Positions 1,683 to 17,754 are shown, numbered from the stretch's first letter. The stretch: 64,000 bases of DNA from Thermodesulfobium acidiphilum (GCF_003057965.1 NZ_CP020921.1:394100-458099); one strand, 5' to 3'. The notes: generated by a model not told the origin, from the letters alone. Numbers and translations: made by a program.

Positions 1683-2099
1683 TTAGGATGATAATATTTC
1701 AATAGATTTTAGTAGCTCATCTTTTTTCTTATACACATCCCCCAGATATGACTCTTCGTGTGGAAGTTCTAATCTTAAAAGATCGTCTTTGGTTAAATTC
1801 TTTTCAAATATATATCTGTTATTCTTGAAGTCATAATAGCACAGACTGGTTTTACTCTTTAAGACTATATCTCTCATGGTGCTTTTACCTGATATATAGT
1901 TCAGTATTACTGTTTGGTTTTCACACAGAAACCACTTTTCGTATTCTTCGTCATCATCATGCCAGATTAGTGCAATAGTTGCAGTTTTGTTTACCATAAC
2001 CCTTGGTCCATAGTACCAGACCAGGATTTCAAAGTTATTCTCTAAAAGGACATCCCCTTCTTTATTTTCTATTTTTATTTTATAATCAAACACCAGCAT
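1683..2099 (-). CDS. Hypothetical protein (138 aa)
   Basis: ORF with GAGGG directly upstream; no recognised motif. Confidence 0.6.
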   Translation of the reverse strand: MLVFDYKIKIENKEGDVLLENNFEILVWYYGPRVMVNKTATIALIWHDDDEEYEKWFLCENQTVILNYISGKSTMRDIVLKSKTSLCYYDFKNNRYIFEKNLTKDDLLRLELPHEESYLGDVYKKKDELLKSIEILSS

Positions 2100-2190
2100 C
2101 CCTCTTTAATTTAATTAGTTTATTTAATAAAATTTAAAAATTTGAGTTTGGGTTTTCTTGTAGAGCAAAGCCTGTAAAATTATTTATTAT

Positions 2191-2712
2191 TTAGAACATA
2201 CCCCTTATTTCATTTAAGCTTTGAACCTTTATAGTCGCTTTAAGTATGTTTCTTAACTTCTCCCTATCTTTTGTTTTTTTCACCATTAATTTATATCTCT
2301 TGGGACTTTATCGAATTTGGCTTCAATGGCATCTAAAAGTAAATCCTGGGCGTCAATAATCATACCCTCTTCTCTTCCCTTTTCTATCCACTTCTCAATT
2401 ACAGGTGCCATCTTATCACCTCCTACAGTAGAGTCTAATATAGCTTTCATTTCCTCTTCTTCTAGATCATTTACATTTTATCCCAATTCGTTTTTCCATG
2501 ATAGAAAACTACTGGAATAAACTGAACTTGTCTAAATTAAACCCCTTATACTTCTTTGAAATCTTTTCTGTGTTTATAGGTTTTATTGTATCAAAGTCCA
2601 GTTGTTTTAAAATCTCTTTTGGCAAAGAGAATTCTACAAAGCCCTTTGAATTCTCAATATTTGAGGTTATCTGTTTAAAGAATTTATCGTGTATTTGTTG
2701 TATGTCTTCCAT
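2191..2712 (-). pseudogene. Rpn/YhgA-like (Transposase_31, PD-(D/E)xK) pseudogene with internal deletions and frameshifts
   Basis: Fragments in family order but different frames: MEDIQQIHDKFFKQ..LPKEILKQLDFDT; VIPVVFYHGKTNW; GGDKMAPVIEKWIEKGREEG..EAKFDKVP; KLRNILKATIKVQSLNEIRGMF*. Confidence 0.8.
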
Positions 2713-2767
2713 AAATTGATTTAAACACAAGAATAGGGAAGTGTCAAATAGGGGAGTTCTTTAGTTT

Positions 2768-2872
2768 TAATTGTCTGACAATTATTAAAATTACTTAATT
2801 TAAGCGATAATTTTAATTATGTCAGAAGTGCTTGACAAGTCTGACAATTATATGTATTATTGTCAGACATAC
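2768..2872 (+). promoter_or_regulatory. Sigma70 promoter of the cbb operon with repeated TGTC-W-GACA operators
   Basis: TTGACA (2832-2837), 17-bp spacer, TATTAT (2855-2860). Perfect palindrome TAATTGTCTGACAATTA at 2768-2784; further copies AGTCTGACAATTA (2838-2850) and TATTGTCAGACATA (about 2858-2871). Confidence 0.8.
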
Positions 2873-2891
2873 TTATGAAAGGAGGTTGGCA

Positions 2892-3035
2892 ATGGCGGAT
2901 GGGATTAGTTTTCTTTTCCTGGGTTTAGAGGCTTTTTTGTTTTTTGAGTTTAATCTCAGGTTGTATGACATTGTCAACCTGGATTACTCCCCTAAAAAAT
3001 CTTTGGAGGTGAAAGAGCTATGCAAATTTTTTTAG
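2892..3035 (+). CDS. Putative 47-aa Phe-rich small protein or leader peptide overlapping the tal start
   Basis: AAAGGAGG SD just upstream of ATG 2892; [47 protein letters not shown]. Confidence 0.4.
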
Positions 3036-3673
3036 ATACTGCGAAAATTGACGAAATTAGAAAATTAGTTCCTACTGGTGTGGTAGATGGTGTTACCACG
3101 AATCCATCACTGCTTGCAAAGGCTGGTTGTAAAGACATTAAAGGTGCAATAAAGGAAATTTGTGCTCTGGTAAAAGAGCCTGTTAGCGTAGAGGTTATAG
3201 GGACTCAAGCAGATCAGATGATAAAAGAAGCAAGAGAATATTCATCCTGGAAGCTAAATACTGCTGTAAAGATCCCTATGACGGAAGAAGGCTTAAAGGC
3301 TGTAAGCGTTTTGTCAAAAGAAGGCATTAAGACGAACGTTACGCTCATTTTTTCAACTAGCCAGGGACTTCTTGCAGCTAAAGCAGGTGCGACCTTTGTG
3401 AGCCCATTTGTTGGCAGGTTGGATGACATATCCCATAACGGTCTGGAAGTGGTAAGAGACCTGGCACATATATTTAAGATTTATGGGATAAATACAAGAA
3501 TTATTGCAGCCAGCATCAGACATCCTATTCACGTAGTAGAATCTGCGAAAGCGGGAGCTCACATCGCCACAATCCCCACTAAGGTTTTAGAGGCTATGTT
3601 TAGACACCCGCTGACTGACATAGGGATTGAGAAATTTTTAAGCGATTGGAAAGGGCTTCAGGAATCAAAATAG
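3020..3673 (+). CDS. tal: Transaldolase (short TalC/FSA family)
   Basis: [13 protein letters not shown] and VKIP (Schiff-base Lys). PVSVEV (Glu) and SPFVGR (Phe) are the transaldolase-type rather than FSA-type residues. Confidence 0.93.
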
Positions 3674-3707
3674 TTTAGAAGTAAAAAAATAATAATGAGG
3701 TGAAATT

Positions 3708-4997
3708 ATGAGCAATAAATTAAATATTAAATATACAAATTTTTTGGATTTTGACTACGTTCCGAAAAAAAATGATGTGCTGGCTGCCTTTTACGTGGAA
3801 CCTGCTCCAGGGACAGACATTAAAGAGGCTGCTGGAGCTGTGGCATCTGAGTCATCTATAGGTACATGGACAGATCTTGCTACTATGAAACAAAGTATTT
3901 GGGATGAATTGAGAGCAAGAGTTTATTCTATAGAAGGCGATGTTGTAAGGATAGCATATCCAGACGTGCTCTTTGAAGCAGCTAATCTTCCTCAGTTTTT
4001 AAGTAGCATTGCGGGAAACGTCTTTGGAATGAAAGCAGTAGAAAATTTAAGGTTGTTAGACATCGTTCTCACACAAAAATTTTTGGATGAGTTAAATGGA
4101 CCTGCTTTTGGAGTAGAGGGCGTAAGAGAGGTATTGAACGTCAAGGACAGACCCTTGGTTGGAACTATTGTTAAGCCAAAGTTAGGGCTTGATCCAAAGG
4201 AGCAGGCAAAGGTAGTATATGAATCTCTTGTTGGTGGTTTAGATCTGGTAAAGGATGATGAAAACCTCACTCATCAAGATTTTTCTAATTTTGATGAGAG
4301 GGTAAAATATTCGCTCGATGCGGTTAGGCGCGCTGAAAAAGAGACTGGTGAGAAAAAGGCATATCTGCCAAACGTTACAGCTCCCACAGAGGAGATGTTA
4401 AGAAGAGCTACTCTGGTTAAACAAGAAGGTGGAAAGTATGCGATGGTGGACGTAATAACCACAGGTTTCGCAGGGGTTCAAAGTCTCAGGAATGCAAATA
4501 CAGGGCTGATACTACATGCTCACAGGGCTATGTATGCAAGCTTTGCAAGAAGCAAAAAACACGGCATTCACATGTTAGTTCTCTCAAAGCTTTTGAGATT
4601 TGCAGGAGTGGACCAGCTTCATATTGGCACTGTAGTAGGAAAAATGGAAGGAGATAGGGATGACGTATTGGTGTGTCATGAAGCTTTGGGTTCTAGCAGT
4701 GAAATGAAAGTGAAAACATATTTGCCACATCAAGAATGGGGCAATATGAAGAGCGTTTTTTCTGTAGCATCTGGTGGGCTTCACCCAGGCCATACAGCTG
4801 ATCTTTATAAAATATTTGGGAAAAATGCTATTTTTCAATATGGCGGAGGAGTTCACGGACATCCAGAAGGAACCAGAATGGGTGCAAGGGCTGTAAGGGA
4901 TGCAGTTGAGTGTGCTGTTAAGGGAATAACTTTGAAAGAAGGGGCAAAGAGCAGCAAGGCGCTTGAAATTGCCCTATCAAAATGGGGAGGTGCATAA
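3708..4997 (+). CDS. rbcL: RubisCO large subunit, form III
   Basis: ESSIGTW, GNVFGMK, KPKLG, DLVKDDE, HAHRA, LHIGT, GKMEG, SGGLHPG, GGGVHGHP; 429 aa; no rbcS nearby. Confidence 0.95.
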   Translation: MSNKLNIKYTNFLDFDYVPKKNDVLAAFYVEPAPGTDIKEAAGAVASESSIGTWTDLATMKQSIWDELRARVYSIEGDVVRIAYPDVLFEAANLPQFLSSIAGNVFGMKAVENLRLLDIVLTQKFLDELNGPAFGVEGVREVLNVKDRPLVGTIVKPKLGLDPKEQAKVVYESLVGGLDLVKDDENLTHQDFSNFDERVKYSLDAVRRAEKETGEKKAYLPNVTAPTEEMLRRATLVKQEGGKYAMVDVITTGFAGVQSLRNANTGLILHAHRAMYASFARSKKHGIHMLVLSKLLRFAGVDQLHIGTVVGKMEGDRDDVLVCHEALGSSSEMKVKTYLPHQEWGNMKSVFSVASGGLHPGHTADLYKIFGKNAIFQYGGGVHGHPEGTRMGARAVRDAVECAVKGITLKEGAKSSKALEIALSKWGGA

Positions 4998-4998
4998 A

Positions 4999-5895
4999 AT
5001 GAGCGTCGATCCTGTATTTATAGGCATAGCTGGGGATAGCGGTGCTGGAAAGAGCACATTTGTAAAAGATATAGCCACTCTTTTGGGTAGAGATAAGGTA
5101 AGAACTATATCTTTTGACGATTATCACTCTCTTGATAGGGTTGAGAGAAAGGCTATAGGGATTACTCCTCTTCATCCCAGGGCAAACAATCTCGGCCTTG
5201 CAATCGAGCACCTCTTTTTGCTTAAACAAGGGAAAAAGGTCTTAAAGCCCGTTTACGATCACTCTACAGGCAGTTTTGGAGATCCTGAGTGGGTGGTTCC
5301 TGTGCCTTATATAATATGTGAAGGTCTGCATCCATTTTTCTTTAGGTCTCTTGCAGAACTCTATGATATGAAGGTTTACTACGATACCCAGATGGATTTG
5401 AAATTCAACTGGAAGGTAAAAAGGGATACAGCAGAAAGAGGATATACAGTAGAACAGGTAGCAAAAGAGATCAGGCTCAGACAAAGAGATATTAGGAACT
5501 TTGTAGAGCCACAATGTGCTCTTGCGGATATAATAATCAAATTAAAGATTTCAAAAACTAGCTCTTCTGCAATTGGAGTGGACTGGAAGGAACCAGTCGA
5601 TGATCCCTGGTTAAAGAAGTATTTGAAATCGTGTAATTTTGATGATTGGAAGTGTTTTAACGAGTGGTATGCGGGTAGAAAGATGAACGTTTTTGGAATA
5701 CAAAGCGATTTAACTCAGGATCAGTTGAAAGAATTAAGTTCTATATTCTCTATAAGTCAAGATGTTCTTTCTAAGGTTAAGGAAAAGGAAGTAGTACCAT
5801 ATCGAACTATGTTAGTTTTGTTTGCTACCAGAATCAAGCAAATTAGGGCATCAAAGGACAAAGAAGAAAAGGTGGTGTTCAAAGATGCCGTTTAG
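4999..5895 (+). CDS. prk: Phosphoribulokinase
   Basis: [14 protein letters not shown]-loop, [29 protein letters not shown]; start at ATG 4999, right after rbcL. Confidence 0.93.
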
Positions 5896-6766
5896 CAGGA
5901 TTGTATATAAGCCTGAATATGATGAGCTTGAGAAAAAGGCTTTGATTATCAGAAAAAATATAGTAAAAATGATTGGCAAAGCTGGATCAGGCCATCCAGG
6001 TGGTTCTCTTTCATGCGTAGATATATTAACTGCGCTATATTTCAGGATTTTGAGAATTAGTCCAAAATATCCGAAAGATCCTGAAAGGGATAGGTTTGTT
6101 CTGTCAAAGGGTCATGCTGCTCCGGCCTTGTATGCTACCCTTGCTGAAACAGGATTTATTCCATATGAATGGTTGGATGATTTAAGAGTGTTAGGGTCTC
6201 CTCTTCAAGGGCACCCTGATATGAAAAAAGTTCCCGGAGTTGAGATGTCTACAGGCTCTCTGGGACAGGGATTGAGCGTAGGAGTCGGCATGGCTCTTTC
6301 TGCAAAGATTTTAGAAAGTGGATATAGAGTTTTTGTGCTTCTTGGAGATGGAGAGTGTCAGGAAGGTCAGGTGTGGGAGGCCGCTATGGCTGCCTCTCAT
6401 TTCAAGCTTACAAATATTGTGGCAATTGTAGATAGAAATAGATTGCAAATTGATGGCTGCACAGAAGACGTTATGGGAGTTGAACCCTTAGGGGCAAAAT
6501 GGAAGGCTTTTGGTTGGACTGTGATAGAAGTAGACGGTCATGATTTTCTCGAATTAATACCTGCTCTTGAAGCTATATCTTACACTTCAAAGCCTACTGC
6601 AATAATTGCCAATACGGTAAAGGGCAAAGGTGTATGCTTTATGGAGAACAACGTAGATTGGCACGGAAAGGCTCCAAAACCAGATCAATTAGAAGAAGCT
6701 CTGAAGGGCTTTGAAGGGGTTGAGTTTATGGAATCTGAGGACGTAGAGATAGATTCCAAAAATTAA
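5885..6766 (+). CDS. Transketolase, N-terminal (TPP-binding) subunit
   Basis: [38 protein letters not shown]. Confidence 0.93.
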
Positions 6767-6797
6767 GGAATTAAGAAAATGAAAGGAGATGTTCTGT

Positions 6798-7850
6798 GTG
6801 GCCATTGTATCTGATAGGGAGATTGCTACAAGAGAGGCATATGGTAAGGCTTTGGTAGAACTTGGCAGACAAAATAACAATGTGGTGGTTCTTGACGCTG
6901 ATCTGGCTAAGTCTACCCAAACTATAAAGTTTGCAAAGGAATTTCCAGATAGATTTTTTGACGTTGGGATTGCGGAGGCAAATATGATAGGGATTGGAGC
7001 AGGATTAGCTGCTTGTGGAATGGTGGTTTTTTGTTCTTCCTTTGCAATATTTGCTACGCAAAGGGTATTGAATCAGATCTTTCAATCTGTGGCATACCCT
7101 GGTCTAAACGTAAAAATTGCTGCAAGCCATGCCGGAATCAGCGTTGGAGAGGATGGAGCTACCCATCAGTCGGTTGATGATATCTCAATTATGAGATCTA
7201 TACCAAATATGACAATTGTTGTTCCTGCTGACGCACATGAGGCTTATGAGGCTACCTTTGCAGCTGCAAACTTTGAAGGACCCGTTTATCTAAGGCTTAG
7301 CAGGATGGCAACCCCCGTAGTTACCCCTCCAGGAAAGCCGTTTGAAATTGGAAAGGCCATTGTGCTAAGAGAGGGAAAGGATATCACTATAGCAGCCTGT
7401 GGAATAATGGTTTATGAAGCTCTTGGCGCTGCAGAGAGACTTTCAGGACTTGGAGTAGAAGCTGAGGTAATCAATTACAATACAATTAAACCCTTTGACA
7501 AAGATACTCTTGTGGACTCGTTAATAAAGACTAGGGCTGTTTTAAGCGTTGAAGAGCATAGCATAATAGGTGGCTTGGGAAGCGCAATTGCAGAATGTGT
7601 GGCAGAAGAATTCCCTGTAGCTATGGCAAGAGTGGGTATAAGGGATCAATTTGGTCAATCTGGCAAAAGTTTAGATCTTTTAAAGCACTATCAGCTTACT
7701 TCAGAGGATATAGCAAAGGAAGCGCTGAAACTTTTGGAAACTAAAAGAAAGGCAAACGAGATATATGAGATTTCAGCTTCAACAAAAAGTAACTTTGAAC
7801 CCTTAGGCCCAGAAGTTGAGGGAGGGATGTCAGATGAAGGTAGCAATTAA
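6798..7850 (+). CDS. Transketolase, C-terminal subunit
   Basis: ATREAYG, DADL, GIAEANM, GEDGATHQ, VEEHSIIGGLG; GTG 6798 is better spaced from the AAGGAG SD than ATG 6789. Confidence 0.93.
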   Translation: MAIVSDREIATREAYGKALVELGRQNNNVVVLDADLAKSTQTIKFAKEFPDRFFDVGIAEANMIGIGAGLAACGMVVFCSSFAIFATQRVLNQIFQSVAYPGLNVKIAASHAGISVGEDGATHQSVDDISIMRSIPNMTIVVPADAHEAYEATFAAANFEGPVYLRLSRMATPVVTPPGKPFEIGKAIVLREGKDITIAACGIMVYEALGAAERLSGLGVEAEVINYNTIKPFDKDTLVDSLIKTRAVLSVEEHSIIGGLGSAIAECVAEEFPVAMARVGIRDQFGQSGKSLDLLKHYQLTSEDIAKEALKLLETKRKANEIYEISASTKSNFEPLGPEVEGGMSDEGSN

Positions 7851-8835
7851 CGGTTTTGGAAGAATTGGTCGTTTGGTGGCCAGAATTTCAAGTGATTATA
7901 AAGATATAGACATTGTTGCAATAAACAGTTCAAAAAATACTGCTATGCTGGCTAATTTGTTAAAACACGATTCTATATATAGAGACTTTGATAAGAAAGT
8001 AAGTTATGATAGCGATTCGCTTTATATCAACGATAAAAAAATTCTTGTCTTTGAAGAAAGAACTGATATCTCTAAACTTCCATGGAAAGATCTGGATATT
8101 GAGATAGTAGTAGAGTCTACTGGTAAATTTACAAAAAAAGAAGATGCGTACAAGCACATAATTGCAGGTTGTAAAAAGGTGCTTATTAGTGCGCCAAGTA
8201 AAGACGCTGATTGTATGGTTGTCTATGGCGTAAACCATAAAGACATACTGCCTTCCTTTGAAGTAATATCTGCAGCTTCGTGCACTACCAATTGTCTTGC
8301 TCCGGTTTGCAAGGTTTTAAACGATGAGTTTGGAATTGAAAAGGGTACTATGACTACAGTTCACGCATATACGTCGGATCAAAGACTATTAGACGGCACG
8401 CACAAAAAGGATCCAAGAAGGGCAAGAGCTGCAGCTATAAACATGGTACCAACTTCTACAGGGGCTGCAAGGGCTATTGGAAAGATATTCCCTGAGCTTG
8501 AAGGGAAGCTTGACGGAATATCTTTGAGAGTGCCAGTTCCTACGGCTTCTATAGTTGATTTGTCTGTGAATCTCAAAAAGAACCCTGAAATAGCGGATAT
8601 AAATGAAGCGTTTAAGGGCTATTCAAATGACTCAATGAAAGGCATTTTATACTATTCACAAGAGCCTCTAGTATCAAGTGACATTATAGGCAGCAGATAT
8701 TCTTCTATTGTGGATGGACTTTTAATATCAAAAATTCAAGACATTTATAAGGTATTTTCCTGGTATGACAACGAATTTGGTTATGCCAGTAGAATTGTTG
8801 ATTTGATCAGATTTTTGTCAGGGGGAGGGGACTGA
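7834..8835 (+). CDS. gap: Glyceraldehyde-3-phosphate dehydrogenase, type I
   Basis: INGFGRIGR, ASCTTNCL, WYDNEFGY. Confidence 0.95.
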   Translation: MKVAINGFGRIGRLVARISSDYKDIDIVAINSSKNTAMLANLLKHDSIYRDFDKKVSYDSDSLYINDKKILVFEERTDISKLPWKDLDIEIVVESTGKFTKKEDAYKHIIAGCKKVLISAPSKDADCMVVYGVNHKDILPSFEVISAASCTTNCLAPVCKVLNDEFGIEKGTMTTVHAYTSDQRLLDGTHKKDPRRARAAAINMVPTSTGAARAIGKIFPELEGKLDGISLRVPVPTASIVDLSVNLKKNPEIADINEAFKGYSNDSMKGILYYSQEPLVSSDIIGSRYSSIVDGLLISKIQDIYKVFSWYDNEFGYASRIVDLIRFLSGGGD

Positions 8836-8836
8836 A

Positions 8837-10042
8837 GTGAGTTTGTTTGATAGAGCCTCTCTACTTGATTATCCAATATACAGGCTTCAGGGCAAAAGAG
8901 TGTTTGTAAGAGCGGATCTAAACGATCCAGCCGACTCAGAAGGTAATTTGACTGGAGACATGAGGCTCAGGGCAGTGGCTCCCACACTGGCATATTTGTG
9001 TGCTGCAAGGGCAAAGGTGATTCTGGCTTCGCACTTTGGAAGGCCAAAGAACAGAGAAGCGAACTTTTCATTAAAGGGAGTAAGGAAAAGGCTTTCTGAG
9101 ATGCTTGGTTTTAACATAAACTTTATCCCGGAATGTACAGGGAGTGAGTTGGAGGAATTTGTTTTAAACGAATTAAAAGAAGGCGAGATTTTACTGATTG
9201 AAAATCTTAGATTTTGTCCGGGAGAGACAAAAAACGACATGCAATATGCGAGGTTTTTAGCCTCTTTGGGAGACATTTTTGTCCAGGAAGCTTTTGGTGC
9301 ATGCCATAGAGAACACGCTTCAATAGCCTCTTTGCCAAAACTCTTGCCTTCTTTTGCGGGATTTTTACTTGAAAAGGAGGTTATTGCCTTGAGCAAGATT
9401 TTAAAAAGTCCAAAGAGACCTTTTCTTTTAATCTTAGGCGGTAAAAAGGTTTCTGATAAGATAAAGCTTATAAACAATATGATTGAGAAGGTTGACTGTA
9501 TATGTATAGGTGGTGGCATGGCTTTTGCCTTTTTGAGGGCGAATGGATATGATGTGGGCAAGTCCTTTGTGGAAGAGTCTATTGATGACGTAGCGCGCCA
9601 AATACTTTATAAAGCTGGTGAAATGGGAAAGAAGATAGTCTTGCCAATAGACGTTTTGGTGGCAAAGGATATAATAAGTGGTAGTGAGTGTAGACTCGTC
9701 GATGCTCACAGAATACCTGCGGACTGGTATGGAGTTGATATTGGCCCTAAGACTTTGGAGCTTTTCAAGGAAGAAATATTGAAGGCAAAGACTATTTTGT
9801 GGAATGGTCCAATGGGAGTATTTGAGATCCCTGAGTTTTCGTGGGGTTCAAGAGCTATTGCTTTAGCAGTGGCTCTAAGCGAGGCGGTGAGCGTCTGTGG
9901 TGGCGGTGATACATCTGACGTACTTAGGCTAACTAATATGGTCAACTACTTTTCCCACGTTTCTACGGGCGGTGGAGCAGCTTTAAAGTTTTTGGAAGGT
10001 GAAAATTTGCCCGGAATTGACGTCCTCCCTAAAGTAATGTAG
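8837..10042 (+). CDS. pgk: Phosphoglycerate kinase
   Basis: RADLN, SHFGRP, ENLRF, WNGPMGVFE, STGGGA. Confidence 0.95.
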   Translation: MSLFDRASLLDYPIYRLQGKRVFVRADLNDPADSEGNLTGDMRLRAVAPTLAYLCAARAKVILASHFGRPKNREANFSLKGVRKRLSEMLGFNINFIPECTGSELEEFVLNELKEGEILLIENLRFCPGETKNDMQYARFLASLGDIFVQEAFGACHREHASIASLPKLLPSFAGFLLEKEVIALSKILKSPKRPFLLILGGKKVSDKIKLINNMIEKVDCICIGGGMAFAFLRANGYDVGKSFVEESIDDVARQILYKAGEMGKKIVLPIDVLVAKDIISGSECRLVDAHRIPADWYGVDIGPKTLELFKEEILKAKTILWNGPMGVFEIPEFSWGSRAIALAVALSEAVSVCGGGDTSDVLRLTNMVNYFSHVSTGGGAALKFLEGENLPGIDVLPKVM

Positions 10043-10089
10043 GGATTATTTAACTATGAAATAAAATATTTGGAAAGAGGGTAGATCCT

Positions 10090-11061
10090 ATGAAGATAGA
10101 AAAAGGAATAGATCTAAGCAGGTTTATTCTTGAGGAAGAAAGGAAATATCCTAAAGCCTCAGGAACTTTGTCTCGCATACTTATCTCAATAGAAAATGCT
10201 ACCAAGATAATTTCTTCCCATATTAGAAAAGCTGGTCTTGTAGACGTTCTTGGCAAGGTAGGTAGGATAAACGTCCAGGGAGAGGAAGTCCAAAAACTTG
10301 ATGAGTTGGCGAACAACTGGTTAGTTGAGCATCTTGCTTCTACGGGCGACTTCTTTGCTGTTGTATCGGAAGAGATGGAGAAGGCGTTTTTCCCTGAGGG
10401 GGGCAAAGACGGGAAGTATGTAATATGTCTTGATCCTTTGGATGGGTCTTCTAATGTAGATGTAAATATAAGCGTGGGAACGATATTTTCAATTTACAAA
10501 AGGATATCTGACGATGACACATCGTTTCTTCAAGAAGGAAGAAAACAGGTAGCTGCGGGTTATGTAATTTACGGTTCCTCTACAATGCTAGTGTATTCTA
10601 CAGGTAACGGAGTAAACGGTTTTACTCTGGATCCCGGGGTTGGATCGTTTATTTTGTCACACCCAAATATAAGGATACCAGAAAAAGGAAAGATATATGC
10701 TTTTAACGAATCAAATTATAAAAGATGGTCTGATGGTATAAAAAAATATGTCGATATTGTGAAGGAAAAAGGATACACGTTGAGATATGTGGCATCAATG
10801 ATTGCTGACGTTCACAGAACCCTTTTGAAGGGCGGAATATTTGCCTATCCAGCAGATAACGTGAATAAAAATGGAAAGATAAGACTCCTTTATGAAGCAA
10901 ATCCGTTGGGATTTCTGGTAACTCAGGCAGGAGGAATTGCAAGCAACGGTAACTCTAACATCCTTGATGTAAAGCCAGAATCCCTTCATCAGAGGACGCC
11001 TATCTTTATGGGTAGCAAAATGGATATGGAGGAATTTCTTTCTGTAACTAAAGAGAGTTAA
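10090..11061 (+). CDS. fbp: Fructose-1,6-bisphosphatase class I
   Basis: NVQGEEVQKLD, SEE, DPLDGSSN, KIRLLYEANP. Confidence 0.93.
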   Translation: MKIEKGIDLSRFILEEERKYPKASGTLSRILISIENATKIISSHIRKAGLVDVLGKVGRINVQGEEVQKLDELANNWLVEHLASTGDFFAVVSEEMEKAFFPEGGKDGKYVICLDPLDGSSNVDVNISVGTIFSIYKRISDDDTSFLQEGRKQVAAGYVIYGSSTMLVYSTGNGVNGFTLDPGVGSFILSHPNIRIPEKGKIYAFNESNYKRWSDGIKKYVDIVKEKGYTLRYVASMIADVHRTLLKGGIFAYPADNVNKNGKIRLLYEANPLGFLVTQAGGIASNGNSNILDVKPESLHQRTPIFMGSKMDMEEFLSVTKES

Positions 11062-11125
11062 AAAATTAAATTTTAATATTTTTTGATATTATTTATAATA
11101 TAAATTCTCTTTTAAGGAGTTTGAT

Positions 11126-11569
11126 ATGAAGATTTCTATTGCGACTGATCACGGTGCCTTTGAACTAAAAAATAAGATTAAAGATTATTTAATATCAAAA
11201 GGCTATGAAGTTACTGATTTTGGTTGTTTTAGCAACGAAAGTGTAGACTATCCGCCAATTATAGCTAAAGCTGCAAGAGCAGTTTCAATAGGAAAGTGTG
11301 AAAGGGGTATAGTGCTGTGTGGTTCTGGAATAGGTGCATCTATTGTTGCAAACAAGATTAAAGGTATTAGATGTGCCTTGGTTTATGCTCCAGAACTTGC
11401 AAGGCTTTCAAGAGAACACAACAATGCAAATATGATAGCTCTTGGTGGCAGGTTTACTGACTTCGACACTGCTAAAGAGCTTGTGGATATTTTCTTGACT
11501 ACCGAATTTCAGGGCGGAAGACACCTTAGGAGAGTAGAGCAAATTATGGATTTAGAAAAATTTTTATGA
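11126..11569 (+). CDS. rpiB: Ribose-5-phosphate isomerase B
   Basis: DHGA, DYP, CGSGIG, HNNAN, GGRH. Confidence 0.95.
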   Translation: MKISIATDHGAFELKNKIKDYLISKGYEVTDFGCFSNESVDYPPIIAKAARAVSIGKCERGIVLCGSGIGASIVANKIKGIRCALVYAPELARLSREHNNANMIALGGRFTDFDTAKELVDIFLTTEFQGGRHLRRVEQIMDLEKFL

Positions 11570-11584
11570 ATTTTGGAGGCTGCC

Positions 11585-12211
11585 ATGTTAATATCCGGTT
11601 CTATTCTGTCGGCTGATTTTTTAAATTTTGAAAGAAATATAAGAGAATTAGAGCCATATGCTGATGCCTGGCATGTAGACGTTATGGATGGGCACTATGT
11701 GCCCAACATATCTTTTGGACCGCAATTTGCAACTTATTTGGCAAAATGTTCTAAACTTCCCGTGTCCGTTCACCTTATGGTAAAGGAACCAGAAAAGTTT
11801 GTAAGTCTGGTTCCGAAAACCGTAAGAGAAGTAACCTTTCATCAGGAAGCTACCGTTGCACCTGTGAGATTTTGTGCAATGCTAAGGGAGATGAACTTCT
11901 TGCCTGGAATTAGTATTGGGCCAGGAGTGCACGAAAGCTCTATATTTGAGATATTGCCGTTTGTACATCACGTTTTGTTTATGAGTGTTGAGCCAGGATT
12001 CGGTGGACAGTCATTTATTGAACCAGTTTTTGAGAAAATAAATAGGTTAGTCAAACTTTATCCCAATAGAAATTTTGAGATCTGGGTTGATGGGGGCGTG
12101 GATATGTTTTGGGGTGAAAAACTAAAAGAGATTGGTACAGATCTGGTAGTTATGGGTAGTGCCTTTTTTAAGGCCAGGGACCCCGGTGAATTTGGAAAGC
12201 TTAGGGGGTAA
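11585..12211 (+). CDS. rpe: Ribulose-phosphate 3-epimerase
   Basis: SILSADF, HVDVMDGHYVPN, MSVEPGFGGQ, VDGG. Confidence 0.93.
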   Translation: MLISGSILSADFLNFERNIRELEPYADAWHVDVMDGHYVPNISFGPQFATYLAKCSKLPVSVHLMVKEPEKFVSLVPKTVREVTFHQEATVAPVRFCAMLREMNFLPGISIGPGVHESSIFEILPFVHHVLFMSVEPGFGGQSFIEPVFEKINRLVKLYPNRNFEIWVDGGVDMFWGEKLKEIGTDLVVMGSAFFKARDPGEFGKLRG

Positions 12212-12283
12212 GATTGAGTAAACAAAAACAAGGATAGTGTATAATGTAAGAGTTTAAATCCTACGTTAATAGGAGCAAGAAAG

Positions 12284-12367
12284 GTGGAAATATTTTTTAT
12301 ATCGCTCTTTATAGGTCTTATAATCGGTGTAGCGCTATATTTCGTTAGGAATAGAAAAAAGTCTTAG
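12284..12367 (+). CDS. Putative 27-aa single-pass membrane protein
   Basis: GTG start 8 nt after AGGAG, TATAAT at 12240; MEIFFISLFIGLIIGVALYFVRNRKKS (hydrophobic helix with basic tail). Confidence 0.6.
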   Translation: MEIFFISLFIGLIIGVALYFVRNRKKS

Positions 12368-12370
12368 TTA

Positions 12371-13942
12371 TTAGTTAAAGGTTTGGTTTTTCAGATCGAA
12401 AGCTACTTCCTCCTTTTCTATTGGATGATTTATCAAAACGTCCAGTGCCCTTAACACGCTTCCGCTATGAATTGGATTTTTGTCTGCTGAACCCATTAGC
12501 TTTCTAGCATATTCCTCAAGGAAGTATTCGTACTTTATCTCTTGTGGAAAATTTCTTAAGAGTTCCATCATGCTCATAAAGATATATGGTCCAGGTGCTG
12601 AAAGCGGCATATCGAGTAAATATTCTATCTGATCGTATAAACCACTTTCGCTTTCTACTTCAAAGAAACCACCTTTCCCTCTGTTCCAGAACCTATTTAG
12701 AGCCATATCTATTACATTCTTTGATGATTCAAGATATTTTTCTTCTTTAGTTATCTCAAACAATCTTAACAGGCTATATCCAAAATATGCATAATCAGAT
12801 AGTATGCCTGGTTTGGTCTTTGATCTCATGAGATGGGCATTTTGCAGTCTATTATCTAGAAGCATATTAGCAGTTTTCACAGCGCTTTCTAGAAAGTATT
12901 TATCTGACGTGGCAAGATAACTTTCACAGAAAGCCTCTATTACAAGCGAGTTTACATCAGTGTAAATTGATTTATCTACAAATCTTTTTCCCTTTATTTT
13001 AGCGTTGGACGTGTAAAATCCGCCTTCTTCTGATTCGTTTGCAGAAAAATATTTTTTAAATTGATTTATTATATCCTTTAAATCAGAAGCTACAAAGGTT
13101 CTAAAGGCTCTAGAATAAAGCCGTAGTAGTTCTGCATTGTCTGCAGTAGTTTTTTCTTCTCTTACACATTGCCATGCTTCATCGGCGGAGCATCTATAAA
13201 ATCCACCCTCTTCTTTATCGTGGATTTTACCCTTTGCCATATTCCTTAAAACGAGCAAAACTGCCTTTTTTATCTCTTCCTTTGTATCCGTTTGTGTTTC
13301 GTTAACGTATTGATTTACCATTACTTCAAAAAGAGAAGGAAAATAAAATTTCTGATCAAGAGCCAAACTGCCAGAGACATCGTCCCAGTTTTCTAACACT
13401 TCCATTACAGAAAAGTGTATTATGTTGTTATCAATGCCCATTGGTTCTGTGTGAAAGTGCTTTTGGATTAATTCTTCGTTGTTTTTTGAGAGTTCTTCTA
13501 TCTTTTTTCTTGCTTCCTTGAACATACCTAACACTCTTTCAAGGATATCTTTAAAACCTATTTCTTCGTTTGTTTTTCTATACACAAAACCGTAGAATGC
13601 TCTCGCTTCAGGAGTAAGGAATGCTATCAATGGCCATCCAGAGTCTTTCATAATTACCGATATACTTTCCTGGTATCGTCTGTCAACCTCAGGGTGTTCA
13701 TCTCGATCTAAGAGTACAGAAACGAAGTTTTTGTTCAAAAGGTCAGCTATCTGTGGATCTAGAAATATTTCATCAGTTATTTCATGACACTCCTGACACC
13801 ATAGAGCACACGAAACCAAAAAAATTGGTTTATCCTCACTTTTTGCCCTGTCCAGACACTCTTTTGACCATGGATACCAGTCTATAGGATCATCTTTATG
13901 TAATTTCAGGATTTCGCTATCCGTGTTGCCGAGCTTGTTCAT
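12371..13942 (-). CDS. YyaL/DUF255 thioredoxin-domain protein (divergent)
   Basis: PIDWYPW, WCQECH, DRDEHPEVD, GWPL, GGFYRCS..W, EKTTADNA. Confidence 0.8.
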   Translation of the reverse strand: MNKLGNTDSEILKLHKDDPIDWYPWSKECLDRAKSEDKPIFLVSCALWCQECHEITDEIFLDPQIADLLNKNFVSVLLDRDEHPEVDRRYQESISVIMKDSGWPLIAFLTPEARAFYGFVYRKTNEEIGFKDILERVLGMFKEARKKIEELSKNNEELIQKHFHTEPMGIDNNIIHFSVMEVLENWDDVSGSLALDQKFYFPSLFEVMVNQYVNETQTDTKEEIKKAVLLVLRNMAKGKIHDKEEGGFYRCSADEAWQCVREEKTTADNAELLRLYSRAFRTFVASDLKDIINQFKKYFSANESEEGGFYTSNAKIKGKRFVDKSIYTDVNSLVIEAFCESYLATSDKYFLESAVKTANMLLDNRLQNAHLMRSKTKPGILSDYAYFGYSLLRLFEITKEEKYLESSKNVIDMALNRFWNRGKGGFFEVESESGLYDQIEYLLDMPLSAPGPYIFMSMMELLRNFPQEIKYEYFLEEYARKLMGSADKNPIHSGSVLRALDVLINHPIEKEEVAFDLKNQTFN

Positions 13943-14069: not shown

Positions 14070-14363
14070 TTATTTGGTTTTTTCTATATATTTCATAATG
14101 TTTTGGAGTTCTGCGATCTTTTCGTCCACGTCTTTACTATTTACTGCGTTTCTTACGCATCTGTCAATGTGTTTATTTAAGACAGATGTATTAGCCTTTT
14201 TTAGTATAGCTATAATTGCCAGAATCTGGTTTGATATATCTATACAATATCTTTCATCTTCAATCATATTTATTACGCCATCAATGTGTCCTCTGGCAGT
14301 TTTTAGTAATTTGAGAGCATCTTTATGAAATGGTTCTTTTTTGTTAGTATTCGACTTTTTCAA
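14070..14363 (-). CDS. csoR: CsoR-family copper-sensing repressor
   Basis: ARGHIDG..RYCIDISNQ..HIDRC; last gene of the cop operon. Confidence 0.85.
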   Translation of the reverse strand: MKKSNTNKKEPFHKDALKLLKTARGHIDGVINMIEDERYCIDISNQILAIIAILKKANTSVLNKHIDRCVRNAVNSKDVDEKIAELQNIMKYIEKTK

Positions 14364-14550
14364 CCTTATATGCCGTGTCCTCTAAAGATTTTTCCAGCGC
14401 TTCTTTGCTAATATTTTTGGTACTTTTAATGTTTGCAATTTTTGTAGCCAGGTCTACTTCAACCTTTTCAACGCCATCAATTTGAGAAAATAACCTTTCA
14501 ACTGTCTTTTTACAGTGCATGCACGTCATTCCTGAAACGTATACCTTCAT
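14344..14550 (-). CDS. copZ: Copper chaperone (HMA domain)
   Basis: GMTCMHC motif, 68 aa. Confidence 0.88.
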   Translation of the reverse strand: MKVYVSGMTCMHCKKTVERLFSQIDGVEKVEVDLATKIANIKSTKNISKEALEKSLEDTAYKVEKVEY

Positions 14551-14559
14551 TTTTTCACC

Positions 14560-14805
14560 TCAAGACTTTTTAAAAATTTTTTCTAAGTTAGGTTTTTGGT
14601 CCTTGAACGTTCCATAAAAAAATTTATCATTTATAACAGTAATTGGAGCTATTCTGACGCCAAACTTTTTATAGGCTTCATCTGCATTTGAATTAGCTGT
14701 GATATCTATCTCAGTATATTGTATATTATTTTTTTTAAGCCAGTTTTTTACGGCTGCGCAGTCTGGGCATCCAGGCGATGTGTAGATAATAACGTCATCT
14801 TTCAT
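14560..14805 (-). CDS. Glutaredoxin/NrdH-like protein
   Basis: IYTSPGCPDC, APITVI. Confidence 0.85.
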   Translation of the reverse strand: MKDDVIIYTSPGCPDCAAVKNWLKKNNIQYTEIDITANSNADEAYKKFGVRIAPITVINDKFFYGTFKDQKPNLEKIFKKS

Positions 14806-14835
14806 TTTTTTTGCTCCTCTTAAATTTATTTAAAT

Positions 14836-15522
14836 CTACTTATCTAAGACTATAAACTTTCCATACATGCCATGTTGTGCATGTCCTGGTACCTGACATA
14901 TATAATAATATGTTCCGGGTGTATTTGCACTAAATTCTGTGGATCCAGTTGCCAAAAGTTTACTTTGTTTGTCTTCATAAGGTAATGGTCTGATTGCAGA
15001 ATATTGGAATGCTAAGGATATGTTCATCATCACCATATAAGGATATGAAGGTGCGGTGTTTGTAATTATTATCCCATGATACATATCATCATCATTGTTT
15101 ATTAGTTTCAGAGTTACATTGGCATTTTTTCTAACAATAATAGTTGGATTTATTAGATTTCCTACTCCGAACGAATACATTGCATTGTCATTTGGAGAAG
15201 CTATGATGGGTATAACAGGGTTTTGATCGTTAAAGGTGACCGAATTGTTCTTATCGTTAACTGCTACGTTGCCAGTGAGATCTGAAAAACTCTTTAACTG
15301 GTTTGTAGGTATGGTTTGATAGCTACTCTGACCATTGTTATAGCCATACATCATTCCAGGTCCATAACCGTTTCCCGAACCATTTCCTTTTCCATACATC
15401 ATTCCAGGTCCATAACCGTTTGTATATGTGCAAAATCCATTGCTATAAGCATATCCAAAAGCTAATATAAAGACTAAAACCAAAATAAAAATAATTGGCT
15501 TTACAAAACTCCTTTTAAACAT
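14836..15522 (-). CDS. Secreted rusticyanin-like blue copper protein
   Basis: Signal peptide; NPTIIV..INNDDDMYHG; C-terminal YYYICQVPGHAQHGMYG (type-1 Cu Cys/His/Met ligands). Confidence 0.85.
   Translation of the reverse strand: MFKRSFVKPIIFILVLVFILAFGYAYSNGFCTYTNGYGPGMMYGKGNGSGNGYGPGMMYGYNNGQSSYQTIPTNQLKSFSDLTGNVAVNDKNNSVTFNDQNPVIPIIASPNDNAMYSFGVGNLINPTIIVRKNANVTLKLINNDDDMYHGIIITNTAPSYPYMVMMNISLAFQYSAIRPLPYEDKQSKLLATGSTEFSANTPGTYYYICQVPGHAQHGMYGKFIVLDK
15344..15421. repeat. 30-bp direct repeat encoding NGYGPGMMYG twice
   Basis: ccatacatcattccaggtccataaccgttt at 15344-15373 and 15392-15421. Confidence 0.9.
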
Positions 15523-15543
15523 TTTTAACCTCCTAAATATAAT

Positions 15544-17754
15544 TTATATTTTAAAATTTCTAAGCCTAAGGGAGTTTGTAACTACAAAAACTGAGCTTGT
15601 AGCCATTGCTGCCTCGGCTATTACAGGATGAAGCATTCCAAGTGCTGCGAAGGGGATTGCAATAATGTTGTAGAAAAAAGCCCAAAACAGGTTTTGTTTA
15701 ATTTTTTTGAACGTTGCTATAGACAGTTTTATAGATTTAGCTACGCTTATAAGATCATCTGACATTAATGTAATGTTGCTTGCTTCTTTGGCTATATCAG
15801 TTCCAGTTCCTATGGATATTCCTACATCCGATTGTTTTAAAGACGGGGCGTCATTTATTCCATCTCCAACCATTGCCACAACATGGCCTTTCTCTTGAAG
15901 TCTTTTGATGTGTGCTATTTTGTCTTGAGGCAATAGGTTAGCAAAATATTCATCAATGCCAACTTGACCTGCAACATATCTTGCAGTTTCTTCGTTGTCA
16001 CCTGTGAGCATTATTGTTTTTATGCCCATCTTTTTGATTTGATCAATTGCTTCTCTTGCATTCTCTTTTATCTTAAAAGACAAAGCCATAATTCCCAGTA
16101 AACCCTTTTCATCTTCATATGCTATTGCCAGAGTTTTTCCTTCAAATTTTGACTTATCAATGTCTTTTATCCCTGCAATTTTTTCAATAAATTTTGGACT
16201 CCCTACGATGATCTTCTTGTTATTTAAATAGCCTTCTACTCCTAAACCTGGAACTACCTTTACGCTTTGAAAGTCTATTTTCGAAATGTTGTTGTCTTTT
16301 GCAAATTTATTAATTGCAATGCCGATAGGATGTTCGCTATAACTCTCAAGGGAGGCAACAATCTTTATAAATTCCTCTCTATCAATGTTTGACACAATAT
16401 CAGTAATATAGAGTTCTTTGTCTGTAATTGTCCCTGTTTTGTCAAATACTACTATATCTATATCCTTTGCTCTTTCCAAGGCTTCACCTGATCTAATTAG
16501 TATTCCTTTAGATGCTCCTAATCCTAATCCTACCATTAGTGCAGTTGGAGTAGCGAGTCCTAGTGCACAGGGACAGGCTATTACAAGCGTTGCGATTGAA
16601 GCATATAAGGCAGCTGAAATTGTGTTGAGATTAGGATTTACCCAGGGAAGAAAATTCTTTACCCAGAAATTTAATTTGTGTAAATCTGATGGGAACAAGA
16701 TCCAGGCTATAAATGTTAGAATAGCAATAATTATAATCGATGGAACGAAAATTGAAATAACCCTATCAGCAAATGCTTGTACAGGAACTTTAGTGCTCTG
16801 AGCGTCTTCTACTAATTTTGAAATTTTTGATAGGACTGTACTTTCTCCTATTTGTGTAACTCTGACTTTTATTGTGCCAAGTTGATTTATGGTGCCACCA
16901 ATTACTTTATCATTAATTGATTTGGTGACTGGTAGACTTTCTCCAGTTATCATTGACTCGTCTACTGATGTGGTACCCTCAATTATTACTGAATCTGTTG
17001 GAATTTGCTCAGATGGTTTTACCAAAAGAATATCTGAAACCTTCACAAAGTCTATATCTACTGTTTCTATGGAACCGTCTTGTTTTACCAGATTAGCTTT
17101 CTTGGGGCTAAGGTTTAGTAGCTTTTTTATCTCTTCCGATGCTCTCCCCTTTGCTTTGTTTTCCAGGTATTGTCCTATAAGATAAAAGCTGGTGATCATA
17201 GCTCCTACTCCAGAATAATCAGCTATTTTTTGACCAAGCAAATTTAATACTCCTGTTAAATACGAAGACGTTACTCCGAAAAATATTAAAACGTCCATAT
17301 TGGTATTTTTGTGAATCAATGCTTTTATTGCGCTTTTTATAGGATCTATACCTATTATGAAAATCACCGGGAAAGATAGAATAAGGTTTATTAGAATGTG
17401 ATATTTGAATTCAATATTAAAAAACATGTGTAAAAACATAATAAAGCTAAGAGGGATTGTAATAGCCCAGGCATATATCATCTTTAATTTAGCTTTTTTT
17501 ACCTTTTCCAAAAACTCATCGGACTCGTCTCTTTTATTAGCTTTTTCATAGAAGGCTTTGTATCCAGCTTTTTCTACGGCTTCAAAAACATCTTTTTCAT
17601 TAAAATTTTGTGGATCAAATGTTATCAAAGCCTTTTCGCTGGCAAGATTTACTACTGCGCTTTTGACGCCTTTGACTTTCTTAAGAGCCTTTTCCACGTT
17701 CATTGCACAAGAGGCGCAACTCATTCCCTCTATCTTTAAGATTAACTTCTCCAT
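15544..17754 (-). CDS. copA: Cu(I)-exporting P1B-type ATPase
   Basis: GMSCASC, TGES, IACPCALGLATP, DKTGT, SEHP, GDGIND, YN motif. Confidence 0.95.
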   Translation of the reverse strand: MEKLILKIEGMSCASCAMNVEKALKKVKGVKSAVVNLASEKALITFDPQNFNEKDVFEAVEKAGYKAFYEKANKRDESDEFLEKVKKAKLKMIYAWAITIPLSFIMFLHMFFNIEFKYHILINLILSFPVIFIIGIDPIKSAIKALIHKNTNMDVLIFFGVTSSYLTGVLNLLGQKIADYSGVGAMITSFYLIGQYLENKAKGRASEEIKKLLNLSPKKANLVKQDGSIETVDIDFVKVSDILLVKPSEQIPTDSVIIEGTTSVDESMITGESLPVTKSINDKVIGGTINQLGTIKVRVTQIGESTVLSKISKLVEDAQSTKVPVQAFADRVISIFVPSIIIIAILTFIAWILFPSDLHKLNFWVKNFLPWVNPNLNTISAALYASIATLVIACPCALGLATPTALMVGLGLGASKGILIRSGEALERAKDIDIVVFDKTGTITDKELYITDIVSNIDREEFIKIVASLESYSEHPIGIAINKFAKDNNISKIDFQSVKVVPGLGVEGYLNNKKIIVGSPKFIEKIAGIKDIDKSKFEGKTLAIAYEDEKGLLGIMALSFKIKENAREAIDQIKKMGIKTIMLTGDNEETARYVAGQVGIDEYFANLLPQDKIAHIKRLQEKGHVVAMVGDGINDAPSLKQSDVGISIGTGTDIAKEASNITLMSDDLISVAKSIKLSIATFKKIKQNLFWAFFYNIIAIPFAALGMLHPVIAEAAMATSSVFVVTNSLRLRNFKI

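Follow-up and report, generated by a model that had tools for sequence, protein, structure and literature searches.

A ten-gene operon predicted to encode a Calvin-Benson-Bassham cycle of the transaldolase type in Thermodesulfobium

We describe a ten-gene operon, tal-rbcL-prk-tktN-tktC-gap-pgk-fbp-rpiB-rpe, at positions 3020-12211 (+) of a 64,000-nucleotide stretch of Thermodesulfobium DNA (the window, in which all positions are counted unless a genome or locus is named). The operon is very probably a Calvin-Benson-Bassham (CBB) operon of the transaldolase variant, belonging to this H2-oxidising sulfate reducer, most likely T. acidiphilum. It joins a RubisCO large subunit (RbcL) to phosphoribulokinase (PRK) and has transaldolase (Tal) at its head. 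The remaining steps of the cycle are all encoded, with phosphoglycerate kinase (Pgk), glyceraldehyde-3-phosphate dehydrogenase (Gap), fructose-1,6-bisphosphatase (FBPase), transketolase, ribose-5-phosphate isomerase (Rpi) and ribulose-phosphate 3-epimerase (Rpe) in the operon, and triose-phosphate isomerase (Tpi) and an aldolase for fructose-1,6-bisphosphate (FBP) elsewhere in the genome.

The pathway appeared in print in 2019 for a species that is almost certainly this one, and the finding is therefore already known biology. Passages in PMC10176493, PMC13374853, PMC8402940 and PMC12542636 credit Frolov et al. (2019) with demonstrating this variant in T. acidiphilum, and those in the first three speak of autotrophic growth by it without sedoheptulose-1,7-bisphosphatase (SBPase). 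A passage in PMC8402940 calls T. acidiphilum the only experimentally confirmed case, and one in PMC12542636 reports the same arrangement for Ammonifex degensii and Thermodesulfitimonas autotrophica. As far as the citing papers portray the 2019 cluster, it has, as here, a RubisCO without small subunit, PRK and transaldolase and no dedicated SBPase gene. The window RbcL and the enzyme of T. narugense DSM 14796 agree at 407 of 429 positions (94.87% identity), and a passage in PMC12999727 gives the identity between the T. narugense and T. acidiphilum enzymes as the same 94.87%; no difference from the described cluster can be shown. The operon is thus, by every indirect test, the cluster already described in T. 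acidiphilum, and a sequence-only reading of this DNA, which had called the system rare rather than new on the strength of that description, was well founded.

From this pathway it became clear that autotrophy can be carried by a RubisCO that has no small subunit and bears the label form III, and that transaldolase can replace the steps of SBPase and of the aldolase that forms sedoheptulose bisphosphate (SBP), which bears on the origin of the Calvin cycle; since 2019 it has been extended in print to Ammonifex, WOR-3 and Ktedonobacteria. To this the window adds gene starts fixed to the nucleotide, the places in the genome of the aldolase, of tpi and of a duplicated housekeeping set, the presence of an aldolase gene or an FBP aldolase/phosphatase gene inside the operon of related lineages, and a conserved block that is a putative promoter and operator.

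The ten genes and the cycle they would run

Ten co-oriented open reading frames (ORFs), abutting or overlapping, fill the whole of 3020-12211 in a mechanical ORF list, which holds no comparable frames on the opposite strand across the same interval. With corrected starts the intergenic gaps from tal to rpe are 34, 1, -11, 22, -17, 1, 47, 64 and 3 nt, and this spacing is that of a typical operon; the rbcL-prk linkage is especially close, rbcL ending at 4997 and prk starting at 4999. The TTG starts listed at 4963, 5822 and 7816 for prk, tktN and gap lie too far upstream, and the ATG starts that replace them (4999, 5885 and 7834) stand behind good ribosome-binding sites and yield exact proteins on record. 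All ten products match their expected families far above curated cut-offs (Pfam and NCBIfam; Table 1). For the pgk product a model of fused phosphoglycerate kinase and triose-phosphate isomerase (PGK/TIM) matched over its PGK part only (positions 11-391 of 645). The sequence-only reading had seen ten co-oriented, tightly packed genes led by tal, with rbcL beside prk, and ORFs, spacing and families all bear it out.

Table 1. Features of the operon, of its promoter region and of the paralogues and cycle genes located elsewhere in the genome
Feature	Product or description	Position	Strand	Evidence and remarks
Promoter region	Putative promoter with overlapping repeat element	2771..2869	+	Best sigma-70-like match; identical in genus
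tal	Transaldolase, short, 217 aa	3020..3673	+	PF00923 206 bits; TIGR00875 302 vs cut-off 246; exact protein on record
rbcL	RubisCO large subunit	3708..4997	+	TIGR03326 rubisco_III 544.4 bits vs cut-off 497.45
prk	Phosphoribulokinase, 298 aa	4999..5895	+	NF005655 257 bits vs 236; exact protein on record
tktN	N-terminal half of split transketolase, 293 aa	5885..6766	+	PF00456 184 bits; 11-nt overlap with prk
tktC	C-terminal half of split transketolase, 353 aa	6789..7850	+	PF02779 167 bits; PF02780 110 bits
gap	Type I glyceraldehyde-3-phosphate dehydrogenase, 333 aa	7834..8835	+	TIGR01534 421 bits vs 367; 17-nt overlap with tktC
pgk	Phosphoglycerate kinase, unfused to tpi	8837..10042	+	PF00162 461 bits
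fbp	Class 1 fructose-1,6-bisphosphatase	10090..11061	+	NF006778 441 bits vs 368; exact protein on record
rpiB	Ribose-5-phosphate isomerase B	11126..11569	+	NF004051 182 bits vs 135
rpe	Ribulose-phosphate 3-epimerase, last operon gene	11573..12211	+	PF00834 175 bits; NF004076 167 vs 165
tal2	Paralogue of tal	G000:C1:1130347-1130988	+	
fbp2	Class 1 FBPase paralogue	G000:C1:1131051-1131998	-	64% identical to operon fbp
Aldolase	471-aa long class II aldolase	L001:1183-2598	-	Next to fbp2; PF01116 weak, 57 bits
tkt2	Second split transketolase	C1:702204-703906		
gap2-pgk2	Paralogues of gap and pgk	C1:1575331-1577616		tpi directly after
tpi	Triose-phosphate isomerase	G000:C1:1577636-1578316		Outside operon

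In the cycle that we propose, PRK would make ribulose-1,5-bisphosphate (RuBP), which the RubisCO without small subunit would carboxylate, and Pgk and Gap would reduce the 3-phosphoglycerate to triose phosphate. Tpi and the long class II aldolase, whose genes lie outside the operon, would act with the operon's own class 1 FBPase to give fructose-6-phosphate (F6P), and ribulose-5-phosphate would be regenerated by transketolase, transaldolase, RpiB and Rpe. Tal would run in the direction from F6P and erythrose-4-phosphate (E4P) to sedoheptulose-7-phosphate (S7P) and glyceraldehyde-3-phosphate, and five triose phosphates would become three pentose phosphates by way of two FBP hydrolyses and no SBP. 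Because no SBP would be formed, both phosphatase steps would be taken at FBP. We infer that the operon copies, and not their paralogues, carry the flux, and that SBP goes unused.

Tal scores 262 bits with 1VPX, 249 with 3R8R and 228 with 3S0C, solved transaldolases of Thermotoga, Bacillus and Thermoplasma, as compared to 124 bits only with the E. coli fructose-6-phosphate aldolase 1L6W, and it is due to this closer kinship that the NCBIfam product name "fructose-6-phosphate aldolase" should not be taken literally. It has Glu, Lys and Phe at the positions that we take to separate transaldolases from fructose-6-phosphate aldolase, and it appears to be a genuine transaldolase, not an F6P aldolase. 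Prk, the sole PF00485 member in the genome, scores 141-183 bits with solved PRKs, 78 with uridine kinase and 31.6 with the R. sphaeroides (Rhodobacter)-type PRK, and by these similarities it is of the cyanobacterial/archaeal/plant type.

The genome (one contig of 1.77 Mb, 99.99% complete) holds rbcL, prk, rpiB (by tblastn) and rpe in single copy, and has tal, tkt, gap, pgk and fbp once more outside the operon, in copies 51-65% identical to the operon proteins. Given the housekeeping cluster gap2-pgk2-tpi (locus L002, G000:C1:1575331-1578316), tkt2 and the other paralogues, the genome keeps two sets of five cycle enzymes. At a second sugar-phosphate locus (L001, G000:C1:1130347-1133428) tal2 (+) converges on fbp2 and the 471-aa aldolase (-). 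The latter is 94% identical to a T. narugense protein named "ketose-bisphosphate aldolase class-II" and shares 62-70% identity with proteins that carry the name class II fructose-bisphosphate aldolase in Aquificota. The earlier statement that there is no aldolase and no tpi therefore holds inside the operon and fails for the genome, where both genes, which the sequence-only reading had proposed to seek elsewhere, are now located, tpi at C1:1577636-1578316 and the aldolase beside fbp2.

Residues and form of the RubisCO

The catalytic motifs of RbcL are complete: ESSxGTWT (E48, T53, W54), GN (N104), KPK (K156, K158), KDDE (K182, D184, E185), HR (H272, R273), H305, K312, SGG (355-357) and GGG (379-381) are all present and are invariant in a 16-row alignment. 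The motifs were mapped to positions that we take to be their counterparts in the spinach numbering, and among them are the lysine that is carbamylated, the Mg ligands and the P-binding residues. By motif, RbcL is predicted to be competent as a carboxylase. One could suppose instead that it is a form IV RubisCO-like protein (RLP) devoid of carboxylase activity, and weaker secondary matches to the MtnW (238 bits) and OiaX (215 bits) models, both below their cut-offs, might be cited to that effect. The complete set of carboxylase motifs speaks against this, as do the match to the form III equivalog model and the great distance of RbcL from four plasmid-borne RLP anchors in the tree described below; we give the form IV reading next to no credence and regard it as already refuted at the sequence level.

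Two trees were built to place RbcL. The first, of 120 rows (IQ-TREE quick search, LG+C20), comprised the window RbcL, 16 RbcL matches, 95 of the 150 listed 50%-identity representatives (the other 55 were dropped for lengths outside 380-500 aa), anchors for form IA, form IC and four RLPs from plasmids, and the RbcLs of two loci with prk next to rbcL, L017 and L036. The second was a careful search on 55 rows chosen from the first. The trees are without any named form II anchor, and 95 rows are unnamed representatives.

In both trees the window RbcL lies inside a Thermodesulfobium/Ammonifex/Desulfothermobacter clade (99/99 in the careful tree), which nests in a larger group with form IA and form IC (supported at 95 by the quick tree and at 94/96 by the careful one). 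This larger group has 22 rows in the careful tree and also takes in the rbcL-prk bacteria of L017 and L036, Acidobacteriota sequences and the row P0148, whose best solved relatives are structures of ancestral-form-I and form I' type. The archaeal (DPANN-rich) form III sequences make up a separate clade of 14 rows (99/94, careful tree). When the Thermodesulfobium clade was joined to the archaeal clade, the log-likelihood fell by 30.1 and the approximately unbiased (AU) test did not reject the arrangement (p = 0.055, for a group that was defined after the tree was seen). In these trees, then, the RbcL clade appears to be bacterial and to sit with the form I lineage rather than inside archaeal form III, the AU test not rejecting the alternative. 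In PMC13454268 this RbcL clade goes by the name form I-beta and is the first to branch off within form I; that naming agrees with our trees.

This bears on the description of the enzyme as an archaeal-type form III RubisCO, one part of which stands. RbcL passes TIGR03326 with all its motifs, and "form III" is correct in the sense in which the database and the 2019 description use it; "archaeal-type" is a loose term that is not well supported, since the trees place the clade with form I (94/96), with the AU value of 0.055 to be kept in mind. The phylogeny had itself been proposed as a check on whether RbcL would group with form IV, and its distance from the four RLP anchors answers that point. 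The form III RubisCO of Thermococcus kodakarensis (1GEH) resembles RbcL in having no small subunit, in its similar length and in passing the same NCBIfam model, and scores 384 bits; the window RbcL differs from archaeal form III enzymes in falling outside their clade in our trees.

The accessory genes of better-known RubisCO systems were sought at two scales. Near the operon neither a LysR regulator nor a small subunit, an activase or a shell protein is encoded, LysR/CbbR and CbbX having been looked for only there and not genome-wide. Across the whole genome PF00101 (RbcS) found no match, whereas it did match the control genome of Synechococcus, and CbbQ and the shell proteins of bacterial microcompartments (BMC) were not found. 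The sequence-only reading had held that rbcS, carboxysome, cbbR and activase are all missing; for rbcS and the carboxysome this is upheld genome-wide by PF00101 and BMC shell searches, and for cbbR and activase it agrees with the flanking genes and with the genome-wide negative for CbbQ, LysR/CbbR and CbbX having been searched nearby only. The RbcLs encoded on Cupriavidus necator pHG1 and on a Nitrobacter hamburgensis plasmid are about 38-43% identical to the window RbcL. Their cbb operons, unlike the one described here, specify a form I L8S8 RubisCO with rbcS and have a divergent LysR regulator, to which Nitrobacter adds carboxysome genes, and the PRK of classical proteobacterial cbb operons is of another class than the window Prk.

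Rival pathways, the rest of the genome and related clusters

It might be argued that RubisCO and PRK work here without autotrophy, as a CO2-dependent electron sink or as a shunt for recycling pentoses or nucleotides in the manner of archaeal form III. A passage in PMC12999727 states that form III RubisCO usually acts in AMP salvage, and in loci with related RbcLs prk was missing beside rbcL in 77 of 80 from genomes and 79 of 80 from metagenomes, many of these contigs being short. The salvage enzymes themselves, however, are absent from this genome. Its best match to AMP phosphorylase (TIGR03327) is a pyrimidine-nucleoside phosphorylase, which reaches 207 bits where 535 would be needed and passes the thymidine phosphorylase model (346 vs 269); its sole IF-2B member scores 162 against 314 with the model of ribose-1,5-bisphosphate (R15P) isomerase (TIGR00511) and is MtnA (379 bits vs 279). 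The earlier observation that the operon lacks AMP phosphorylase and R15P isomerase thus extends, with scores far below the cut-offs, to the whole genome. As compared to the archaeal pentose bisphosphate pathway, in which those two enzymes take part, RuBP would here come from PRK.

Further points speak against a non-autotrophic role. The same predicted operon that holds rbcL and prk holds a complete regeneration set, acetyl-CoA synthase was not found genome-wide as an alternative fixation route, and Thermodesulfobium species are described in a passage of PMC12999727 as autotrophs on H2 and sulfate. As markers of its lifestyle the genome has a dsrA match of 541 bits and a [NiFe] hydrogenase match of 468 bits. 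We consider a role without autotrophy very improbable, and the proposal that the operon is the autotrophic pathway of the organism gains support from the missing AMP-salvage partners, the missing acetyl-CoA synthase and the presence of dsrA and [NiFe] hydrogenase.

Some details of these matches may be recorded in passing. The dsrA match at G000:C1:1324260-1325438 is flagged with one internal TAA, and a weak match to the [NiFe] hydrogenase large subunit at C1:574771-574977 has one internal TGA, which may be selenocysteine or a gene boundary. MtnA adjoins a class II aldolase-fold protein like FucA/MtnB (L098, G000:C1:1020119-1023961), and the pair may belong to a methylthioadenosine salvage shunt.

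The order of the ten genes is identical in all four Thermodesulfobium genomes, that is in the three besides the window's own (tblastn, E <= 1e-10), which are T. narugense DSM 14796 and two others; the operon proteins are 91-97% identical to the window's in one of the three (G001) and 85-95% in the other two (G002 and G003). Beyond the genus, loci with related RbcLs were compared. Of 80 from genomes, prk lies beside rbcL in three, namely L013 of Ammonifex thiophilus, L017 of an unclassified bacterium and L036 of a member of Stahlbacteria/WOR-3, and tal in L013 only. Of 80 from metagenomes, 78 gave the rbcL match alone, one (L121) has nine of the ten genes, and another (L193) has pgk and gap on the other strand. 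Many of these loci are short contigs, for which absence of the neighbour genes is not shown.

Ammonifex L013 and the metagenome locus L121 share the core tal-rbcL-prk-tktN-tktC with the window operon, and their RbcLs, 68% and 71% identical to the window's, belong to the same clade (99/99). In L013 the core is followed by a full-length FBP aldolase/phosphatase (PF01950, 615 bits) instead of class 1 fbp, then by a tail of rpe and gap, and the locus has a LytTR gene. In L121 it is followed by gap-pgk-rpiB, then by a 435-aa long class II aldolase and only then by fbp, and this aldolase inside a Calvin operon supports the 471-aa protein as the aldolase of the cycle in Thermodesulfobium. The F6P-forming step is always encoded in the three clusters, by different enzymes, and in all three lineages, with RbcLs 68-95% identical, tal stands at the head; together these two observations are the best sequence-level support for a part of Tal in the cycle and for the 471-aa protein as its aldolase.

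At L017:383-2124 and L036:1016-2853, in an unclassified metagenome-assembled genome (MAG) and a Stahlbacteria/WOR-3 MAG, prk stands directly downstream of a form III-like rbcL, with no tal seen on the short contigs. In the trees the RbcLs of both belong to the large group that also takes in form I and the Thermodesulfobium clade, and WOR-3 is discussed in a passage of PMC12542636.

The main rival to the transaldolase route is a classical Calvin cycle, in which the class 1 FBPase doubles as SBPase, the class II aldolase condenses dihydroxyacetone phosphate with E4P, and Tal belongs to pentose phosphate housekeeping. In proteobacterial cbb operons the class 1 FBPase is a bifunctional FBPase/SBPase, and SBP is accepted by class II aldolases, both of which count for the classical route, as does the presence in this genome of two class 1 FBPases and a class II aldolase; for the housekeeping role there is, in addition, tal2, which could serve it. 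Classical proteobacterial cbb operons group RubisCO with genes for PRK, transketolase, glyceraldehyde-3-phosphate dehydrogenase, phosphoglycerate kinase, FBPase and the epimerase; to our knowledge they have no transaldolase in the operon. Against the classical route, tal here opens the operon, 34 nt upstream of rbcL, and keeps this place in the three RbcL lineages, and in Ammonifex the slot of the FBPase is filled by an FBP aldolase/phosphatase. Frolov and colleagues reportedly measured no SBPase activity and high transaldolase activity in T. acidiphilum in 2019. Passages in PMC13374853 and PMC8402940 report that T. acidiphilum fixes CO2 despite having no SBPase. On balance we judge the classical route unlikely.

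Other versions of the cycle were considered through the enzymes that they would need. GlpX and phosphofructokinase (PFK) are each absent from all four Thermodesulfobium genomes, and the lack of PFK removes the version that depends on pyrophosphate-dependent PFK (PPi-PFK). A DeoC-type aldolase was not found genome-wide, and the search for class I aldolase (PF00274) was uninformative, as no control genome matched. The absence of GlpX from the four genomes agrees with the claim that there is no dedicated SBPase; with two class 1 FBPases and an aldolase present, that claim does not decide the route.

Three considerations weigh against the transaldolase cycle as we have drawn it. The class 1 FBPase or its paralogue could hydrolyse SBP, and the class II aldolase could make it; the enzyme-assay and proteomic evidence comes by way of the summaries in citing papers; and the search for ATP-citrate lyase (PF16114) was uninformative, its controls being silent, so that other routes of CO2 fixation are not exhaustively excluded. 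The transaldolase route is nonetheless supported, by the gene context described here and by the published assays as the citing papers convey them.

A further protein could bear on the F6P and S7P steps. At 46352-47215 (+) the window encodes a 287-aa protein, kept in all four Thermodesulfobium genomes, that is a distant relative of FBP aldolase/phosphatase, strongly diverged and shortened. PF01950 covers only its residues 228-280 (53 bits) and the NCBIfam equivalog gives 51 bits against a cut-off of 520; its predicted structural model matches FBP aldolase/phosphatase clusters with a template-modelling (TM) score of 0.83 over 279-281 residues.

Promoter block, composition and neighbouring genes

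Upstream of tal, the best sigma-70-like match in 2000-12600 has a -35 element TTGACA (2832-2837), a 17-nt spacer and a -10 element TATTAT (2855-2860), agreeing with the consensus at 11 of 12 positions. We infer that the operon would be transcribed as one unit from this putative promoter (2832-2860). A repeat, GTCTGACAAT, stands at 2773-2782 and 2839-2848 and recurs inverted, as ATTGTCAGAC, at 2859-2868. The four Thermodesulfobium genomes share the whole block without change, whereas the sequence further upstream diverges, and neither Ammonifex L013 nor L121 has GTCTGACAAT repeats upstream of tal. The repeat block over the promoter looks like a repressor operator specific to the genus. It is possible, if somewhat doubtful, that the operon is switched by a regulator other than a CbbR/LysR protein, for which the signal might be H2, CO2 or redox state. 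Full-text literature searches found no paper on this regulation, which the 2019 description of T. acidiphilum and its supplements may cover.

A regulon defined by GTCTGACAAT was also considered, and none is visible, since of six exact matches genome-wide (about 3.7 expected by chance) three are in the promoter block and three are scattered. Upstream of the promoter block, where the sequence of the other three genomes differs, the window has short broken minus-strand ORFs at 2286-2730 (-), with frames of 54 and 73 aa. The 73-aa frame has HDKFFK, a motif known from the N-termini of Rpn/YhgA-like nucleases.

The promoter is followed by a leader of 150 nt with an open 47-codon frame (2892-3035, +), which begins behind a strong ribosome-binding site, AAGGAGG, and ends inside the tal start region. 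The frame is open and free of indels in the four genomes. Its variable columns, 13, 19 and 18 by codon position, show no third-position bias, and its ratio of synonymous to non-synonymous changes, 31:90 as compared to 21:109 and 28:96 in the other two frames, is no coding signature; as it is not a recorded protein either, we reject it as a gene. Within it a conserved stretch, AATCTCAGG...GACATTGTCAACCTGG, may instead be a DNA or RNA element; Rfam gave no match at E <= 0.1 in 2000-12600.

The operon stands out in composition. Its GC content is 40.2% as compared to 33.7% for the genome, a value that only 0.8% of 9.2-kb stretches reach, and its GC skew is strongly positive (0.21-0.26). GC at third codon positions (GC3) is ordinary (0.26-0.40), so the excess sits in codon positions 1 and 2, and on the same grounds we reject recent transfer as the cause of the high GC.

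The gene downstream of rpe is convergent with the operon. The flanks hold a PAS/GAF sensor, a hypothetical protein, a DUF255 thioredoxin-like protein and a copper-resistance cluster. This last, at 14070-17754 (-), encodes a CsoR-type metal-sensitive repressor, a glutaredoxin, a cupredoxin-like protein and a P-type ATPase with an HMA domain.

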